Assembly (NCBI GenBank): GCA_919903025.1
Contig: CAKKSE010000024.1
Span: forward strand, 3,175-67,174
Reading direction: 5' to 3'
DNA from: Nitrospiria bacterium
GTDB taxonomy: Bacteria > Nitrospirota > RBG-16-64-22
DNA length: 64,000 nt
Below the pieces are notes generated by a model. That model was not told where the DNA came from. It ran no database searches and worked only from the letters and a program-made list of their open reading frames with translations. Every line of letters begins with the position of its first letter. Within the stretch, counting starts at the first letter, position 1. The translations under genes and the position numbers were made by a program. Positions 1 through 63,115 of this stretch are shown piece by piece.

Positions 1-657
1 CAAGGGGAGGGCAACGAACACCTGATCGACGTCGTACTGCCGCACGGCTTCCTTCAGGCCGCTGACCGGCCCAAGGACGGGGAGCCCCGCCACGGCCTCT
101 CCGACCTGATGATCGTCGCTCAGGAAGCCCCTCGCCCGGAGCCCGGCCCAGGCGTTCTCGCCGATTCGCTCCGCCACGCGCCGTCCGGTCTCCCCTCCTC
201 CAACGATGAGCGCATGCCGGAGGTTGTACCCGCGCCGCCGCAGGAGGCGAAGCAACTCGCGCAGAGCGCTCCGGGAAACCCAGAGGAGAAGAACGTTCAG
301 GAACCAGAAGTACACCATGACAACGCGGGAGTACGAGTAGTCCCGCACAAAGAACGTGATGAGAATCAGGATCATGGTGGAGAAGGTCGAAGCCTTAAGG
401 AGATCCCGGAATTCGTAGATGAGCGACGCCCCGCGCCGAGGAAGGTAGAGTCCCAGCGCCTTGAACACGAGGGCCCAGACAACGACGGCGTAGGGAAGAA
501 TCCGAAGATACGGTTCGAGCGGGGGGACGCCCCTTTCGATCGGGATCAGGTCCCAGTTGAACCGGATCCAGTAAGCGAGAAGCCACGACGCGGACAAGAC
601 GAGCATGTCCGAGATGAACAGGCCCGAAAGGAGAAGCTGGCTGTGTTTCCTCAGCAT
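1..657 (-). CDS. Polyprenyl glycosylphosphotransferase (WbaP/WcaJ-like initiating sugar transferase), N-terminal part; gene runs off the window start
   Basis: The reverse complement of 1-657 translates to MLRKHSQLLLSGLFISDMLVLSASWLLAYWIRF... (several TM helices). It continues to ...SDDHQVGEAVAGLPVLGPVSGLKEAVRQYDVDQVFVALPL, the typical cytoplasmic linker of bacterial sugar transferases. ATG at 657-655 sits immediately after the TGA of the upstream gene. The listed plus ORF 109..918 is the low-complexity antisense of this hydrophobic region. Confidence 0.8.
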   Translation of the reverse strand, partial: MLRKHSQLLLSGLFISDMLVLSASWLLAYWIRFNWDLIPIERGVPPLEPYLRILPYAVVVWALVFKALGLYLPRRGASLIYEFRDLLKASTFSTMILILITFFVRDYSYSRVVMVYFWFLNVLLLWVSRSALRELLRLLRRRGYNLRHALIVGGGETGRRVAERIGENAWAGLRARGFLSDDHQVGEAVAGLPVLGPVSGLKEAVRQYDVDQVFVALPL

Positions 658-38078: not shown

Positions 38079-38995
38079 CGATCCGCTTTCCCGCCTGCTT
38101 GCAATGGAACGGTCCCTTCCTTCCGCGCCATGAAGACAAGCTTGTTCTCCATCCCGAGAAGCTGCCCGGCCTTGAGTAAGGTCCATGACCCCCATTTGAG
38201 CAGGCGAGTTTCGAACGTCACCCGCCCCACGTACGTCGAATCCTGGCCGATTTCGAGAATCCCGAATCCTGCGTCCCGAAGAAGACGCGAGAGAGACCGG
38301 ACGCTGAAGTAGAAAAGGTGATGAAGATTATACAGCGCCGAAACGGGCTTCCTCCACCCCAGACGGTAGGCAACGCCCGCCGCGCGGTCCAGCAGTCCCT
38401 CCTGGTTGGGAACCTCCAGGACCAGGATCCCGCCGTCGCGGAGCCGGTTCCGGATCTTCCGGACGGCCTCGACCGGATCCCGCAGATGTTCCAGGACGTC
38501 GAACATCGTCACGACATCATACACTTCTCCCTCTCCCGACCAGCTTTCAATGCTTGCTTCGATCACGTTCAAACCGAAAACATCGCGCGCGTACCGGGCC
38601 GCGGTCGGCGAAACCTCGATCCCCCGTCCCCGCCAGCCCTTTTTCCGGACCATGTCCAAGAACGCGCCGCCCCCGCATCCCACGTCCAGGAGGTCCGGCG
38701 AGCTTCCCACGCGCATGGCGATCCGGTCGAGCTTTCGCTCGAGCTGGCGCGCCTCGGCGCTCCCCTCGTACCCATCCCGGCACCGCCGGAAATACGACTC
38801 CCTTTCCCCCGCGGCATCATATCGCGCATAGAACTCGCGGATCGTTGCCTCGCCGGGAACAGGCGAAAACTGGACCAGGGAACAGTCCGGGCATCGCGCA
38901 ATTCGATAGGAGTCCCCGAGCGGTTTTGCCGGCTCATACAAGGGCCGGACCTCGTCCGACCCGCAGAGGTAACACCGGGAACCTGCCTCGCTCAC
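38075..38995 (-). CDS. SAM-dependent methyltransferase with N-terminal zinc-ribbon (TylCIII-like sugar C-methyltransferase architecture)
   Basis: CYLCGS...CPDCSLVQ zinc ribbon followed by LLDVGCGGGAFLDMV motif I. Start chosen at the GTG after GGAGG (38995) to leave a divergent promoter region; the longest ORF reaches 39097. Confidence 0.65.
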   Translation of the reverse strand: MSEAGSRCYLCGSDEVRPLYEPAKPLGDSYRIARCPDCSLVQFSPVPGEATIREFYARYDAAGERESYFRRCRDGYEGSAEARQLERKLDRIAMRVGSSPDLLDVGCGGGAFLDMVRKKGWRGRGIEVSPTAARYARDVFGLNVIEASIESWSGEGEVYDVVTMFDVLEHLRDPVEAVRKIRNRLRDGGILVLEVPNQEGLLDRAAGVAYRLGWRKPVSALYNLHHLFYFSVRSLSRLLRDAGFGILEIGQDSTYVGRVTFETRLLKWGSWTLLKAGQLLGMENKLVFMARKEGTVPLQAGGKADR

Positions 38996-52446: not shown

Positions 52447-54417
52447 TCACCCGCTCCCCGGCTCCCCATCAACGCCCGCGACCCGATAGATCCGGAGCAT
52501 CGAGACCCTCCAATGGAACGGCTTTGGGGCCGTGAGCCGGATCTCGAGAAATCGGGCCGCAACGGATGGAAGGACGACCCGCACGATCATCTGCTCGTCG
52601 ACCAGGAGATTCCCCCCTTCCCACCTCAACGGAAGAACAAAGGGATGGGAAGGGACGGCAACATCCCACGCCGTCCCGTCGGGCGAAACGCGCACCTCGA
52701 ACCGGGCCGGGACGTCCTCCGGCACCGGACCGGGCTCGACGACGAGCATGCCCAGCGTCTCGATGCGGCCGAGATCGACTTGGATCGCCCACCCCGCCAT
52801 CTGCGGCGCCCCGCTGTCCCAGTGCGTCTCGGGATTCCCGTCGAGCATCCACTGGACCCCCTCCGGCGCCGCGGGCGTCTCGACCCTCCATCCCGTTGGA
52901 GAGATCTCCTCAAAACCGCCGACGCTCGGCCTTAACGCTGAGACGAGCCGGTACGGGCCGGCCCTTTCCTCCGTGTACCCGGCCCCCACGCCTCGGAGTG
53001 CCGCACGGAAGCTCCCCGCGCCGCTGTGCCAGATGTACGGAACGGCGTTGAGGGACAAGGCAAAGCGCGTATACATCGGATACTTGTTCCCGCTGTGATT
53101 CAAGACGGGGATCGCGAAGACCGGGTCTTCTCCGCTTGTGAAGTTCGACCGGAAGAACTCCCAGTACTCGGTCGCAAAAACAGCCTCGAGGCCGCGGGCT
53201 CGCAGACCGGCAATCATCTCGCCTTCGGCAATGACTCGCCCCCGATGGGCATCCCGGCGGTCCGGCCACAGCGCATCCGCCCCCGCGACGGTTCCCCAGA
53301 CATTCACGCTGATTAACAGGAGGGCCGCCCCTTGCGCGAGGCGTGGTTGCTGTCCGCCGATCTTGACAAGGATGAGGGCGAGGAAGAGCGGGAACACGGC
53401 GTAAAAGACGAGGAAGTACCGCGTGACCCCCCCGCTGTTGTAGCGGGCGATGATAATCGCGGAGGCGATTGCCGTGAACGAAAGAAGGAGCCCCAGCCCG
53501 AGCGCCTCCCCCGTCCGCCGTCTGTTTGCAGTCAACATCAACCGAAACAACATCCCGGCAGCCATAATCATCGCCCCTGAGTACAGGAGGGTCCCAAGGA
53601 CATTGACGGTCGGCGAGTACGATCGGGCCATCTCGGCCATCGGCATCCCCAGGATCGAAGGAAGCTTCACAAGAAGAAATACCTTGAGCGAGGAATCCAA
53701 CGGGAGCGGCGTCATGTAGCGTCCTGTCTCCGCAAGCGAGGCGAAGTCGTGCCGTACGTTGTATATCCAGAACAGAAGGCTCCCCAACAGCGCAAACCCG
53801 ACCGCCGCCAGAGCGCGCCGGTCCAGGAGGGACCGGCCCAGCCCCGCGAGGAGCACGAGTCCGCCGGCCAGAAGGAAGTGAACCGACTGGAAGCTCACCC
53901 ACCATGCCGCGCCCGCCAGGAACGCGAAGATGCAGAGGCCGCGCCACCGAGCCGCCTCGCTCCCCGCCCGGAGAATTCTCACGACCAGCGCCATGAGGAC
54001 CACGCCGAAGAAGAGATTCTCGATGTAGTTCCCGCGCGCGAGCACCGAGTGCCAGACAAGGAAGGGCGGCCCAAGGGCGAGAAGAAGAAGGCTGACCAGC
54101 CCCGTCTCCCTTCCGAAGGCAATTCTGGCGAATCGATACGCCGCAAAGAGGAAGAGGAGGGAAAAGACCGCCGGCGCGAGGTTGAGGGCGAGTGGCGACG
54201 GGCCGAAGAAGGAGAAGAAAAGGGCCGCCAGGTACGACTCCAACGGCCCGCAATAGGGCTCTCCCCAGTAGAAGATCGGGTATTCGCCCCGGAGGATGTG
54301 GATCGCCATGAGCCCCACGACCGCCTCGTCGGAATCGAGGCTTGGCGTAAGGAGATACACCCCGCGGATGAAAGCGGCCGCGAACAGCAACGCGGCCACG
54401 AGCAGCCTATCCTTCAC
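52447..54417 (-). CDS. PMT-like GT-C protein with discoidin domain, paralog F
   Basis: LDSDEAVVGLMAIHILRGEYPIFYWGEPYCGP; C-terminus LDGNPETHWDSGAPQMAGWAIQVDLG...FEVRVSPDGTAWDV...RFLEIRLTAPKPFHWRVSMLRIYR. GTG start at 54417. Confidence 0.75.
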   Translation of the reverse strand: MKDRLLVAALLFAAAFIRGVYLLTPSLDSDEAVVGLMAIHILRGEYPIFYWGEPYCGPLESYLAALFFSFFGPSPLALNLAPAVFSLLFLFAAYRFARIAFGRETGLVSLLLLALGPPFLVWHSVLARGNYIENLFFGVVLMALVVRILRAGSEAARWRGLCIFAFLAGAAWWVSFQSVHFLLAGGLVLLAGLGRSLLDRRALAAVGFALLGSLLFWIYNVRHDFASLAETGRYMTPLPLDSSLKVFLLVKLPSILGMPMAEMARSYSPTVNVLGTLLYSGAMIMAAGMLFRLMLTANRRRTGEALGLGLLLSFTAIASAIIIARYNSGGVTRYFLVFYAVFPLFLALILVKIGGQQPRLAQGAALLLISVNVWGTVAGADALWPDRRDAHRGRVIAEGEMIAGLRARGLEAVFATEYWEFFRSNFTSGEDPVFAIPVLNHSGNKYPMYTRFALSLNAVPYIWHSGAGSFRAALRGVGAGYTEERAGPYRLVSALRPSVGGFEEISPTGWRVETPAAPEGVQWMLDGNPETHWDSGAPQMAGWAIQVDLGRIETLGMLVVEPGPVPEDVPARFEVRVSPDGTAWDVAVPSHPFVLPLRWEGGNLLVDEQMIVRVVLPSVAARFLEIRLTAPKPFHWRVSMLRIYRVAGVDGEPGSG

Positions 54418-57223: not shown

Positions 57224-57906
57224 CAATCGACGAACCGGTGCTTGACGAGCGTCCAAAGGGCCGGGAACCCGTCCTTCCACGAGATCTTTTTCCCCTCGTG
57301 CTTCTCGCGCCCCGCGTACGAGATCGGCACTTCGTAGATGCGAACGCCCCGCTTCAGGACCTTGGCCGTCAGTTCCGGCTCGATCGTAAAGCGGTCGGAG
57401 ACAAGCCGGATGGACTTGAGGAGGGGTGTGGGGAACAGCTTGTAACCGGTCTCCATGTCCGAGAGCGTCGTGTTGTACAGCGCATTCGTGACGAAGCTCA
57501 GAAACTTGTTTCCGACCCAGTTCAGGAAAAACATGTTCCGGTGCTCGCCGGTGAAGCGCGACCCGTAGACCACCTCCGCCTTTCCCTTGAGGACCGGCGC
57601 CAAGAGCTTGCGGATGTCCTCCGGATCGTATTCGAGATCCGCGTCCTGGATCACGAGATAGTCCCCCCTCGCTTCTTCGATCCCCCTCCGGACCGCGGCC
57701 CCTTTTCCCCGGTTCTCCGGCAGAAGGAACACTCTCGCCAACTCGGGAGGCAATCCCGACAGGACATCCCTCGTTCCATCCGTCGAGCCGTCGTCCACGA
57801 CGACAATCTCCTTCTCCACGCCGAGATCAACCTCCCGCACCCGGTCGATCACGATCCGGATCGTCCCTGCCTCGTTGTAAACGGGAATCAAGACGGTCAG
57901 ATTCAC
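57223..57906 (-). CDS. GT2-family polyprenyl-phosphate sugar synthase-like glycosyltransferase (DPM1-like, soluble)
   Basis: GTG 57906 (GGAGG-N7-GTG) overlaps the upstream TGA. LTVLIPVYNEAGTI; IVVVDDGSTDGT; LVIQDADLEYDP. Confidence 0.8.
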   Translation of the reverse strand: MNLTVLIPVYNEAGTIRIVIDRVREVDLGVEKEIVVVDDGSTDGTRDVLSGLPPELARVFLLPENRGKGAAVRRGIEEARGDYLVIQDADLEYDPEDIRKLLAPVLKGKAEVVYGSRFTGEHRNMFFLNWVGNKFLSFVTNALYNTTLSDMETGYKLFPTPLLKSIRLVSDRFTIEPELTAKVLKRGVRIYEVPISYAGREKHEGKKISWKDGFPALWTLVKHRFVD

Positions 57907-58976
57907 TCTGAAACCTCCGCAAGATGACGACGCAGGCAAACGCGCAGGGCGTCCAGGGAGAATGCGTTCGCCCGTTTCCGGCCCATAAGAACAAGCCTTT
58001 CTCTGAGCGGCCGGTCTCTTATGACCAGATCCAGAAGCTCGGCAATCTCAGGAAACTTCTTCTTTCGGACGAGGACCCCGCCGTCGCCCAATGTCTCCGG
58101 GACCCCGCCGGCCGCGTAGGCCACTACCGGAACGTTGCGCATCATGGCTTCGACGATCGGCACGCAAAATCCCTCGTGCTCGCTCATCCCGACATACACG
58201 TGGGCCCGACGATAGCAGGCCGCGAGCTCCGCATCGGACACATGCCCCAGGAAGAGGACGTTCTGCAAATGAAGGGCCGCCGCCATCTCCCGCAGGGCGA
58301 ATCCGTACGATTCGGTGTCGCACTCCGTCCCCGCGAGGATGAGGCGGCTCAGCGGCCGGACTTTGGCGAAAAAATAATGGATCTTCAAGAGATCTTCGAT
58401 CTTCTTGTTCGGCGCGATCCGCCCCACGTGGAGGACGTTCACGAACCCGTCGTCGAACTGCCTGAGACGCGAGGGATCCGCTCTCCCATCCGCCCGCCCT
58501 CCCTCCACGGCGATGGGGAGAATCCCGGTCTTCTTGAAGCCGGCGCTTTCGAGATCCTTTCGGTTGTACTCCGAGACGCCCAGCGCGAGATCCGCGACCT
58601 CCGCGAGGCGCTCCAGCGCCTCCCGCCCCTCCCGGCATTGCCGGGCCACGCGGCTGTTCACGCCGTCGAAGTATTCCGCGGGCGTAATGTTGTGATAGAC
58701 GAGGACGCGACGCCCGGGAAACGCGGCGAACGCGTCGATCGCCTCGCGACCCAGCGAGAAGTGAAAGAGCAGGACGTCCCTCTCGCCCACCGATCCCGGA
58801 AGATCCCGGATCGGTCTGCAGAGGGACCTCAGCGACTCGTGCGCCGCTCCGGCGAAGACCGTCGAGCCGTATCCGTCCCCCGCCAAGGCCTTCCGGATCG
58901 CGAGCGCATGATTACCGATCGCATCCCCGACGCTGAAGGAGGGAATGAGCTGGTGAATGGAGATCGTTTTCGTCAA
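57903..58976 (-). CDS. GT4-family glycosyltransferase; TTG start fused to the heptamer repeat array
   Basis: TKTISIHQLIPSFSVGDAIGNHALAIRKAL...; C-terminal VYVGMSEHEGFCVPIVEAMMRNVPVVAYAAGGVPE. No ATG/GTG; the TTG at 58976 is the last unit of the 7-bp repeat. Confidence 0.7.
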   Translation of the reverse strand: MTKTISIHQLIPSFSVGDAIGNHALAIRKALAGDGYGSTVFAGAAHESLRSLCRPIRDLPGSVGERDVLLFHFSLGREAIDAFAAFPGRRVLVYHNITPAEYFDGVNSRVARQCREGREALERLAEVADLALGVSEYNRKDLESAGFKKTGILPIAVEGGRADGRADPSRLRQFDDGFVNVLHVGRIAPNKKIEDLLKIHYFFAKVRPLSRLILAGTECDTESYGFALREMAAALHLQNVLFLGHVSDAELAACYRRAHVYVGMSEHEGFCVPIVEAMMRNVPVVAYAAGGVPETLGDGGVLVRKKKFPEIAELLDLVIRDRPLRERLVLMGRKRANAFSLDALRVCLRRHLAEVSE

Positions 58977-59036
58977 TGGTTAATGGTTAATGGTCAATGG
59001 TTATTGGTCAATTGTCAATGGTTGATGGACAAGGGT
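58974..59036. repeat. 7-bp tandem repeat array, about 9 units (plus strand YAATGGT; minus strand ACCATTR)
   Basis: caatggt taatggt taatggt caatggt tattggt caattgt caatggt tgatgga caagggt. It fills the whole spacer between the TGA of the 59036..60280 gene and the TTG of the 57903..58976 gene. AT-rich, in a high-GC context. Confidence 0.85.
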
Positions 59037-60280
59037 CAGTCACTGGCTCGCTGTTGCCGATTGACGAATGACCGATGACGAATGACGATCGGCGGGTAAC
59101 CGGCAAGAAAGGCGTTTGCCCGTTCGATCACGGTGTCCCACGCGTATCGCTCCCTCACGTAGGTTCGGCCCGCCTCGCCCATCGCCGCCGCCCCAGCGGA
59201 GTTCTTCCGCATCCACGACACGGCTTCGATGAACTCTGCCGCGTTCCGCGCCCAGAGGCCGCCGCCGGACCGTTCGCAGTGTTCCAGCGTGACGGGGCAG
59301 TCCGCGTGGACGATCATGGGCCGCCCCTGAAGCCAGCTTTCCATGAGTACGATTGAGAACGACTCCTTCCGGGAGAGCTGGCAGACGGCCAGCGCACCGG
59401 CCACCGCATCCCTCTTGTCCTCCGGATCGAGGAACCCGAGGTCGAGAACGGACCCGGCCGCTTCGGCCGGGAGATGAATCTCTCCGTCTCCCGCCAGAAC
59501 GAGGCGCATCTCTTCCTGTCCGCTCCTCCTCAGCCGGCTGAACCATTCGAGCAGAAGGGGCACGCCCTTCCCGCCCTCCTTGCGCCCGAAGTAGAGGAGG
59601 TAATCCCCGGAGACGCCGAACTTCGTCCGAAAACGGTCCCCGTCACCCGGCGGGTCCCGGTCGAAGCCCATCCCCACAACGGCGCGAGGCCGGTCGCCGA
59701 TCCCGTACAGTAGGTCCGCAAGGCGCGCCTCAGCCTCGGTGTTGAACCAGAACCCGCCGACGCCCTCGAAAAGGAGGCGGAAAACCGGCAGTTTCGCAAA
59801 CGGTTCGTCGTGAAGGCACGGGATGAGGACCGCCTTCGGCCCCGCGACGCGGGCCCCGAAGAATGTCGTCCCGAAGAGGTACGGGAGGAGAAAGACGGCG
59901 TCGAACCGGTCGACCTCGCCCGCCAGGGCGTCGAGCAGGCCATCGCTGTTCACGCTCTCGGCGAGCCAGCGGATCTGCTCGTCGACGGTGGTCCGAATCC
60001 CTTCGACGATCCTGGCCTGGATGGAGTGGAACGCCGCCAGGTTCCGCGGGTTCGTGAGAAAACGGCGGACGAGAACGCCCGATTCCATACTCTCGCCTTG
60101 AGGAAGCGCGTTCTCCCACGTGAAGTGACTCTGGGCGCACGTCGTGAAGACGCACACGTCGGCCCCCTCAGCCGCGAGACGCTCCGCCATCTTGCGGGCC
60201 AGGGTCTCCGCGCCCCCCACGATGTTCGATCCGTACCGGGGAACAACGAACGCAAGGCGAAAATCCGCGAACCGGGTCAC
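59036..60280 (-). CDS. GT4-family glycosyltransferase
   Basis: MTRFADFRLAFVVPRYGSNIVGGAETLARKM...; SIVLMESWLQGRPMIVHAD. The C-terminal tail IVIRHRSFVNRQ is encoded by a 10-bp direct repeat. Confidence 0.75.
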   Translation of the reverse strand: MTRFADFRLAFVVPRYGSNIVGGAETLARKMAERLAAEGADVCVFTTCAQSHFTWENALPQGESMESGVLVRRFLTNPRNLAAFHSIQARIVEGIRTTVDEQIRWLAESVNSDGLLDALAGEVDRFDAVFLLPYLFGTTFFGARVAGPKAVLIPCLHDEPFAKLPVFRLLFEGVGGFWFNTEAEARLADLLYGIGDRPRAVVGMGFDRDPPGDGDRFRTKFGVSGDYLLYFGRKEGGKGVPLLLEWFSRLRRSGQEEMRLVLAGDGEIHLPAEAAGSVLDLGFLDPEDKRDAVAGALAVCQLSRKESFSIVLMESWLQGRPMIVHADCPVTLEHCERSGGGLWARNAAEFIEAVSWMRKNSAGAAAMGEAGRTYVRERYAWDTVIERANAFLAGYPPIVIRHRSFVNRQQRASD

Positions 60281-61907: not shown

Positions 61908-63115
61908 GTCTTTGCCGCCCCTTCGGCCGGACTCGCGCACTCGGAGCTCACGCCCGGCAGGGCCTCATAACGGTCGAGCACCGTCGGCCACGCGAAATTC
62001 CGGCGGACAAAGTCGGAGCCCTGCCGTCCCAGGGCTTTTCGCAGGTCCGCATCCCCCTCCAGCCGCCGGAGGGCGATCTCGAACGTCGGGTAATCGTCGT
62101 ACCAGAGCCCCCCGTCGGACTTCTCGACAAACTCCTTCGTAACGGCACATCGGCCATTGACCAGGACCGGCGTCCCGCAGACCCAGGATTCCATCACCGC
62201 GAGGGAGAACGACTCGTGGACCGACGGCTGGACAAGGACGTCCGCGGCCGCCAGGGCGTCAACGAGGTGCGCGCGGGGGCGAAAGCCCAGATCCCGGACC
62301 CAGGGCCGAAGTGAAGGCGGAACCGGGACCCAGCCGGACCCGATCAGAACGAGGCGCAGGAGCGAATCCGGGAACCGGCCGCGGTAGCGTTCGAAGTACC
62401 GAAGGAGCTCGGGCGTGTTCTTTCCGCTGTCCTTCCGTCCGACGGCCAGCAGGAACGACGGGCCCGGCGCGTAGAGATGATGAAATCGGTCCTTTTCCGG
62501 AGCCAGGTCCGTGTCCACGCCCTCCCCGAGCATGAAAATCTTCTCGTCCGGAACCCGGTGCAGTTCCTGGACAAGCCGCCGTTCCGCGTCCGAGTGGAGA
62601 ATGAGCCCCGCGATTTCGTTGAAGACGGTTGTATACGTCCCCAAGCGGGCGTACCCCTCGTCATGAAGGCAGGGGATCATGAATGTCCGCTCCGGGCGGA
62701 TGCGGGCCGCGGCGACGCTGAGACCGAAGCAGTACGGGATCACGATCGTGATCCCTTCATACGGCTCCTCGGCCAGCGCGGAGCAGAGCTTTCGGCTGTT
62801 CGCCGAATGGGCCAGGAACTGCCGTTCCTCCTCCGGCGTCAGCCTCTCTCCCCGAAGAACCTTCGCGTTGAGATCGTTGAACGCGTCATGGTCGGTCACG
62901 TCGGCCCGAAACCGTCGGACCCTGACGCCGCCCAGATCCTCCGCGCCGTCCTGGTGAAACGAGATGTTCCAGTTGCTGTCGAGCTCCCGGATCGTCGTCG
63001 TCCATACCTCGACCTCGTGGCCCCGGGCCGCGAGCCCCTCCGCGGTCTTCCGGCACTCCCGCTCCGCGCCCCCAGGAATCTCTCCATACCACGGAATGAC
63101 AAAGCGGAACTTCAA
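61904..63115 (-). CDS. GT4-family glycosyltransferase
   Basis: MKFRFVIPWYGEIPGGAERE...; VLVQPSVHESFSLAVMESWVCGTPVLVNGRCAVTKEF. Confidence 0.8.
   Translation of the reverse strand: MKFRFVIPWYGEIPGGAERECRKTAEGLAARGHEVEVWTTTIRELDSNWNISFHQDGAEDLGGVRVRRFRADVTDHDAFNDLNAKVLRGERLTPEEERQFLAHSANSRKLCSALAEEPYEGITIVIPYCFGLSVAAARIRPERTFMIPCLHDEGYARLGTYTTVFNEIAGLILHSDAERRLVQELHRVPDEKIFMLGEGVDTDLAPEKDRFHHLYAPGPSFLLAVGRKDSGKNTPELLRYFERYRGRFPDSLLRLVLIGSGWVPVPPSLRPWVRDLGFRPRAHLVDALAAADVLVQPSVHESFSLAVMESWVCGTPVLVNGRCAVTKEFVEKSDGGLWYDDYPTFEIALRRLEGDADLRKALGRQGSDFVRRNFAWPTVLDRYEALPGVSSECASPAEGAAKT

Follow-up and report, generated by a model that had tools for sequence, protein, structure and literature searches.

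What does a short, AT-rich simple repeat do between two glycosyltransferase genes of a GC-rich bacterium? We addressed this question at a locus on contig CAKKSE010000024.1 of a Nitrospiria bacterium (assembly GCA_919903025.1), within a stretch of 64,000 nt that is referred to here as the window and that has a mean GC content of 63%. On the minus strand of the window, two adjacent genes are separated by a 59-nt spacer made almost entirely of tandem heptamers; both were confirmed to encode GT4 glycosyltransferases. A first-pass annotation had proposed that slippage in the repeat might drive phase variation of surface glycans, a reading that finds no support in the data presented below. On balance, we consider it probable that the heptamers belong to a degenerate, lineage-specific block that acts as a leader lacking a Shine-Dalgarno (SD) sequence for the downstream glycosyltransferase gene and that is also the source of its UUG start codon.

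The spacer (58977..59035, minus strand, as are all features of the junction described below) directly follows the TGA of the upstream GT4 gene (59038..59036) and consists of CCC and eight TTRACCA heptamers (59032..58977), which we refer to as array 2. Read on the minus strand, units 1 to 4 are TTGTCCA, TCAACCA, TTGACAA, and TTGACCA, and units 5 to 8 are ATAACCA, TTGACCA, TTAACCA, and TTAACCA, with unit 1 at 59032-59026 and unit 8 at 58983-58977. A ninth heptamer, TTGACGA (58970..58976), contains the start codon TTG (58976..58974) of the downstream GT4 gene. The spacer had previously been described as filled exactly by nine units; the heptamer repeat itself was recovered, but eight units account for 56 of the 59 bases, and the ninth holds the TTG. 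Tandem Repeats Finder (TRF) reported array 2 with a period of 7, 7.7 copies, and 80% matches (58975..59028), together with a second reading of period 21 (58972..59038). When the two-unit pattern RACCATTRACCATT was searched in the window with up to two mismatches, seven overlapping matches were obtained, all at array 2, compared with 0.32 expected by chance, and a count of seven was reached in none of 100 shuffles. The units are far from uniform: no more than two identical units are neighbours, and four in a row are found only if R is read as either A or G.

In base composition, this stretch has the lowest GC content of the window whether measured over 60, 80, or 100 nt (33% over 60 nt and 38% over 80 nt), in agreement with the earlier remark that the AT-rich repeat stands out. 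The mRNA strand of the spacer contains 7% G, 32% C, 36% A, and 25% T, and its C-over-G skew is the maximum of the window (0.64 over 80 nt and 0.62 over 100 nt). Array 2 is non-coding, such that a gain or loss of units there alters no reading frame, and it presents stop codons in all three frames. A fusion of both GT4 genes by read-through or frameshifting was considered and rejected, because TGA or TAA is met in every frame of the array.

An in-frame TAA (58982..58980) lies two codons 5' of the TTG; therefore, the TTG is the sole possible start of the downstream GT4 gene. The N-termini of homologues of the downstream protein align at this codon, which corresponds to the ATG or GTG of the orthologues. 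No purine-rich SD motif precedes the TTG in the repeat-filled spacer, whereas a GGAG-type motif is located 5-12 nt upstream in seven of the eight other called starts of the gene cluster. Thus, the two earlier assignments, that the last repeat unit provides the only available start and that this start has no SD sequence, were both upheld.

A second array, absent from the first-pass annotation, was detected by TRF and by pattern search a short distance upstream, at 59059..59086. Array 1, read from 59086 to 59059, comprises four GTCANNN heptamers (GTCATTC, GTCATCG, GTCATTC, and GTCAATC) and sits in the 3' tail of the upstream GT4 open reading frame, past the end of the conserved GT4 fold. Placed in the register of TGGTCAA, the reverse complement of TTGACCA, its units agree at five, five, five, and six of the seven positions, which suggests from the letters alone that array 1 may be an inverted partner of array 2; because agreement of this degree has a chance expectation of ~9%, the pairing of the two arrays in inverted orientation is only suggestive. 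No further doublet of the array 1 or array 2 heptamer occurs in the window. Both arrays are enclosed in a lineage-specific block of ~125 nt (58974..59098), whose boundaries are approximate and were drawn from the alignment. The last ~20 residues of the upstream GT4 protein (YPPIVIRHRSFVNRQQRASD) are encoded by this block and are not conserved in orthologues.

The history of the block was revealed by comparison with related genomes. Identical proteins place the locus in metagenomes from Hainich groundwater, and one source assigns the protein to a Nitrospirota bacterium. The upstream GT4 gene (59036..60280, minus strand) encodes 414 amino acids, compared with 401 in orthologues without the block, and among the proteins searched the long form (414 or 415 amino acids) was found in only two lineages, that of the window and a sister lineage (P0122/P0002, loci L010 and L011). 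The sister lineage has a 415-amino-acid upstream protein, and its two GT4 proteins share 86% and 76-77% identity with those of the window; in L010, both arrays are kept, as is the TTG start, which an in-frame TGA precedes by two codons, and the L010 and L011 contigs are identical to each other. We then inspected six outgroup loci from several assemblies with 65-72% identity (L012, L135, L137, L138, L139, and L140). All six have a 401-amino-acid upstream GT4 whose TGA overlaps the downstream ATG or GTG by 8 nt, with no spacer, and all six have a GAGGG/GAAGGAG motif 8-10 nt upstream of the downstream start. Since every outgroup locus shows the SD-like motif and the overlapping start and stop, the two-array block is a derived insertion or expansion that took the place of both. 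One of the assemblies, GCA_040960375.1, contains a block carrier (L010) as well as a locus without the block (L139, 72% identity); it therefore appears to be mixed or metagenome-scale, with carriers and non-carriers apparently present in one sample.

Between the two block-carrying lineages, the arrays differ in length by whole units. Measured between shared anchors, array 1 is 23 nt long in the window but 30 nt long in L010 (one unit more), and the array 2 region is 87 nt long in the window but 73 nt long in L010 (two units fewer); both arrays have thus gained or lost whole 7-nt units in the course of evolution. The extra array 1 unit of L010 shifts the reading frame of the tail of the upstream GT4, and this shift is tolerated. 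The units of the window depart from the TTRACCA consensus at 5 of 63 positions, and those of L010 at 9 of 56. Because the flanking genes differ between the window and L010 at 24-36% of their four-fold degenerate sites, the decay of the units is accounted for by neutral drift of a once more regular array, and this comparison would require neither selection on the heptamer motif nor ongoing homogenisation. The conservation of the TTRAC core had been considered as a sign of selection and was rejected on the same ground, since neutral decay suffices at this level of divergence.

Within the population of the window, the junction is static. A 191-nt junction sequence was base-identical across 11 distinct contigs from 11 assemblies representing several wells and runs; these contigs are consensus sequences in which minor variants are hidden, and reads may be common to some of the assemblies. 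In other parts of the same 7 kb of the population contigs, single-nucleotide polymorphisms (SNPs) and a compensated pair of 1-nt indels segregate. The indel pair lies at 58545..58549 (minus strand), in the downstream GT4 gene, where, relative to the window, 1 nt is deleted and 1 nt inserted at a distance of 4 nt in most of the population contigs, a compensated frameshift that alters one or two codons; in addition, the first GT4 gene of the cluster has a second haplotype, marked by seven or eight SNPs clustered at 62321..62441. The 11 contigs include one of 200 kb (L143; ERZ1286166 contig_5740) that shares the heptamer junction of the window despite its many fragmented genes, which suggest a long-read assembly with uncorrected indel errors. 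The expectation that copy number might vary among relatives was therefore borne out between lineages, where whole 7-nt units were gained or lost, and failed within the population, where the 11 contigs are identical. The block today is a degenerate, fixed sequence and not a rapid on/off switch.

Similar arrays are not confined to this locus. A scan of a metagenome collection for approximately four TTRACCA units yielded at least 120 loci, at all GC contents. On two contigs of 69% GC, heptamer arrays run straight into a start codon: six perfect units precede the ATG of an amino-acid permease gene (L157, 5297..5340), and an array precedes the ATG of another GT4 gene (L258, 5207..5250); both represent independent recurrences of the arrangement in the window. 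Among the matches listed, arrays on high-GC contigs also end 2-15 nt before the starts of genes for ABC-transporter, CvpA, NusA, VanW, AAA-ATPase, GldM, and UbiE proteins. Nine genes adjoined by an array at 0-15 nt were verified with Pfam; the match starts within the first ~30 residues in seven of them, and that of the ABC transporter and VanW genes begins by residue 93. Since the arrays also adjoin, in unrelated genomes, the starts of genes with housekeeping or transport roles, the TTRACCA heptamer has no special link to glycan genes, and its presence before nusA is compatible with the translation of an essential gene. An opposed partner within 150 nt was found upstream in 14 and downstream in 4 of the 94 arrays with sufficient flanking sequence among the matches listed, and the arrangement in the window, with array 1 upstream of array 2, is the commoner of the two types. 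Pairs of TTRACCA with upstream TGGTYAA that could form hairpins were seen in L176 (~1..150, reverse strand), L212 (3480..3625), and L241 (420..790); the L176 pair is bounded by a T-run and an A-run and resembles a bidirectional terminator, and the L241 array has ~40 units. In a genome scan for four TTRACNN units, heptamer arrays were abundant, among the matches listed, in filamentous cyanobacteria and Bacteroidota. The block as a whole was not recovered in these sources: an anchored pattern specific to it had no match in the metagenome collection, a BLAST search against plasmids gave none, and the sole match to phages was a marginal one (47 nt, 83%) between reversed array 2 and a DUF1376 gene of two Vibrio phages (MG592549.1, 27728..27774, and MG592550.1, 24853..24899). 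This match is probably a coding heptamer-like repeat and likely coincidental.

We also analyzed the RNA predicted to arise from the junction. The leader of the downstream GT4 gene (-100 to +60) is predicted to fold more weakly than any other in the cluster, at -28.7 kcal/mol compared with -50 to -71 kcal/mol, and the start of this gene has the top accessibility of the cluster at -20 to +10 (0.62). The UUG itself is predicted to be mostly paired (probability of being unpaired, 0.13), in a long-range stem between a 5' arm in array 1, GAUCGUCAUUCGUCA (59076..59090, minus strand), and a 3' arm in the start-codon region, UGACGAAAACGAUC (58962..58975, minus strand), which takes in the last two bases of the UUG. 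In L010, a different predicted stem of 11 bp, GUCAGCGGUCA/UGACCGUUGAC, likewise joins array 1 to the start region and covers the UUG. Thus, pairing of array 1 with the UUG in both lineages is a possibility raised by the folding model. A permissive Rfam scan of 58500..59500 returned matches at chance level only, and an intrinsic terminator scan found one unrelated terminator-like site within the downstream GT4 gene.

The genes around the junction form a tight co-directional cluster of GT4, methyltransferase, hypothetical, GT4, GT4, GT2, GT2, DegT aminotransferase, methyltransferase, and PMT_2 genes, in which the block separates the second and third GT4 genes. The downstream GT4 gene (57903..58976, minus strand) starts with TTG, encodes 357 amino acids, and has a stop that overlaps the start of the next GT2 gene; after it, the GT2, GT2, and DegT aminotransferase genes are joined by overlaps. 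The last gene of the cluster (52447..54417, minus strand) encodes a protein of 656 amino acids with a PMT_2 (dolichyl-phosphate-mannose-type) glycosyltransferase domain and a C-terminal F5/8 type C (discoidin) domain, an unusual combination that is kept in the clusters of relatives. Elsewhere in the window, TRF reported two overlapping imperfect tandem repeats at 38678..38749, with units of 27-29 nt, two copies each, and ~80% matches, in a GC-rich region.

How, then, might such a block have come to serve as the start of a gene? We propose that, in the common ancestor of the two sister Nitrospirota lineages, the block took the place of a junction with an SD-like GAAGGAG and an overlapping ATG or GTG, and that its length would since have changed by replication slippage in 7-nt steps on an evolutionary timescale. 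With no SD sequence at hand, ribosomes would now have to initiate at the UUG in the ninth unit, on a G-poor, A/C-rich RNA, in an S1-dependent or standby-site manner. With stops in all three frames, the array breaks the ancestral overlap of start and stop, and loss of this overlap would probably reset, and most likely lower, translation of the distal GT4-GT2-GT2-DegT genes. Were array 1 to pair with the UUG as predicted, initiation could be tied to ribosomes translating the tail of the upstream GT4 gene.

Several observations weigh against this proposal. A UUG without an SD sequence is expected to be inefficient, so that a different mechanism, or an internal promoter that escaped notice, may be required. 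The weak structure of the leader is not conserved, because the L010 leader is more structured, with a predicted fold of -54.9 kcal/mol and an accessibility of 0.39. Nor are the predicted stems exceptional: the fold z-scores are modest (-1.75 in the window and -2.66 in L010), the starts of other genes are predicted to be paired equally often, and the registers of the stems differ between lineages, and on these grounds we treat sequestration of the UUG in a conserved structure as no more than a possibility. Among the 94 arrays in the matches listed, 23 were oriented forward and 22 in reverse with respect to a start codon, and without such a bias a leader role is not a general property of the TTRACCA repeat. 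Finally, the block occurs in two lineages only.

Four other explanations of the locus were weighed against the SD-less leader. According to one of them, the junction is a contingency locus, in which frequent slipped-strand changes of heptamer number switch or tune the downstream glycosyltransferases and thereby vary the surface glycan. It is known that 7-bp repeats upstream of hmw1A and hmw2A modulate expression. The position of a tandem heptamer tract next to glycosyltransferase genes is what such a locus would show, the sister lineages differ by exactly one and two units, and heptanucleotide tracts are among the simple repeats listed for Haemophilus influenzae (PMC2651432). Nevertheless, all 11 contigs from the 11 assemblies carry one and the same junction sequence, despite the SNPs and the indel pair that segregate nearby; with 80% matches and never more than two identical units side by side, the tract is degenerate, and its decay is close to neutral; the host is a free-living groundwater Nitrospirota; similar arrays precede genes for NusA, a permease, and other proteins elsewhere; and unit changes in array 2 leave reading frames intact, with array 1 lying in a dispensable tail. 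Thus, we regard a contingency locus as very improbable, and beyond the unit-sized differences between the sister lineages, the proposal of phase variation finds no support. Alternatively, the sequence might act at the level of DNA, with the AT-rich island serving as an internal promoter, as a heptad operator for a polymerising repressor, or as both. The omega repressor polymerises on 7-10 WATCACW heptads of pSM19035 in direct and inverted orientations, and the eight or nine heptads of array 2 with four opposed ones in array 1 resemble omega operators in number and arrangement. The island is also the most AT-rich stretch of 60-100 nt in the window, and 17 bp beyond each TTGACA or TTGACC hexamer stands RACCAT, which agrees with a -10 element at three of six positions, including the A and T. 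In this respect, the -35-like TTGAC(A/C) hexamers noted earlier are real, but they have no acceptable -10 partner: a sigma-70 consensus scan of 58700..59400, with -35 and -10 elements at 16-18 nt, returned no site. The heptad, moreover, is unlike WATCACW; no ribbon-helix-helix or other small regulator candidate was identified beside the locus, where no exhaustive search was made; a tight co-directional operon needs no internal promoter; and the decay of the units is again close to neutral. A DNA-level site therefore seems distinctly unlikely.

The remaining two explanations start from the untranslated RNA and from the origin of the block. In the former, Rho would load on the 59 nt of untranslated RNA after the upstream TGA, as at a rut site, and would attenuate the distal operon unless the UUG were efficient. 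A rut site comprises ~60-80 nt of untranslated, C-rich, G-poor, and unstructured RNA, and the spacer resembles one in its composition, and in composition only, with 32% C, 7% G, the top C-over-G skew of the window, and weak predicted structure. This base composition, however, simply follows from the heptamer sequence; the L010 spacer is less extreme (16% G on the mRNA strand) and more structured; and similar arrays stand at the 5' end of nusA, among other genes, and termination there would do harm. We find Rho-dependent polarity very improbable. In the latter, the block is a decayed palindromic heptamer element, possibly mobile or born by template switching, which has no function, is tolerated because it happens to bring along an open leader as well as a stop and a start, and is drifting. 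Here, the five or six of seven positions at which array 1 units match the array 2 unit in reverse complement, the excess of inverted partners upstream within 150 nt (14 of 94, compared with 4 downstream, among the matches listed), the hairpins of L176, L212, and L241, the nearly neutral decay, and the restriction of the block to two lineages all point the same way. Set against these, the agreement of array 1 with TGGTCAA has a chance expectation of ~9%, no target-site duplications were seen in comparison with the outgroup junctions, no other copies occur in the window, and the signature of the block was not found in the metagenome collection or in plasmids. The more specific candidate of a miniature inverted-repeat transposable element or other mobile palindrome was rejected for these reasons, namely the weak complementarity of the arrays, the lack of target-site duplication, and the lack of another copy in the window, the metagenome collection, or plasmids. 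In addition, the block is not entirely functionless, because the downstream genes need its sequence for translation. An element of this kind, decayed and inert, is thus an unlikely explanation.

The SD-less leader also admits a bolder extension, in which TTRACCA arrays, often accompanied by an opposed array, are a self-propagating, widespread module that is recognised by a protein binding single-stranded nucleic acid (such as S1 or a cold-shock protein), that inserts between genes, and that exchanges SD-based or overlap-based coupling for SD-independent initiation under separate regulation. We consider this extension quite improbable; if it were true, translation of the distal half of the glycan operon would have been rewired in this Nitrospirota, and the repeat-free relatives would form a natural before-and-after pair for the function of intergenic heptamer repeats. 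Independently of this extension, the locus offers a clean natural comparison between relatives with an SD sequence and an overlap and two sister lineages with an SD-less TTG block. Provided that the downstream glycosyltransferases are still produced, initiation without an SD sequence has to be possible on the array, although this organism relies on SD sequences elsewhere. For annotation, the locus is also a caution that an AT-rich simple repeat beside glycan genes is, on its own, no evidence of phase variation.

Comparison with known repeat systems places the locus more closely. With the omega operators and parS sites of pSM19035 it shares contiguous, spacerless heptads in similar copy number and in direct and inverted orientations, but its heptad sequence differs, no promoter was detected, and it lies at a chromosomal operon junction and not in a plasmid control region. 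Phase-variable contingency loci, such as the heptanucleotide tracts of Haemophilus influenzae (PMC2651432), resemble it in having a short tandem repeat by a surface-glycan gene and a slippage-type mutation spectrum, whereas the tract in the window is degenerate, short, without length polymorphism in 11 assemblies, without an apparent tie between unit number and frame or promoter spacing, and borne by a free-living groundwater host. Heptameric simple sequence repeats are over-represented in bacterial intergenic DNA and have been little studied (Rehm 2015, PMC4692102). Those of the cyanobacterial short tandemly repeated repetitive (STRR) type are likewise intergenic heptamers that vary at conserved positions between related species, in both length and sequence, and whose origin has been ascribed to polymerase slippage; however, the families described there are dispersed in many copies per genome, and the GGGAATC repeat of Xanthomonas is G-rich and quadruplex-forming, whereas in the window a single AT-rich locus in a GC-rich operon is fused to a start codon.

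The closest analogues are the TAACTGA heptamer repeats of marine Beggiatoaceae, cyanobacteria, and Bacteroidetes, which number ~170 sets per genome (MacGregor 2015, PMC4679880). These repeats are forward-oriented, lie a few nucleotides from start codons that have no ribosome-binding site, and contain stops in all frames; they show 7-nt indels between strains, have repeat-free relatives with shorter spacers, and occasionally encode C-termini, and S1, Csp, or CsrA-like binders have been proposed for them, their function being unproven (PMC4679880). The locus in the window matches this description in its tandem intergenic heptamers, set forward at a start codon in place of an SD sequence and with stops in all frames, as well as in its indels in 7-nt steps, its repeat-free relatives with shorter spacers, and its repeat-encoded C-terminal residues. 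It differs in its unit, TTRACCA, a heptamer not mentioned in PMC4679880, in its high-GC Nitrospirota host, in its opposed partner array, and in being an apparently single locus in 64 kb compared with ~170 sets per genome. Thus, we conclude that the locus joins the heptamer repeats that lie between genes and often abut start codons, a known and widespread class whose function is little understood.

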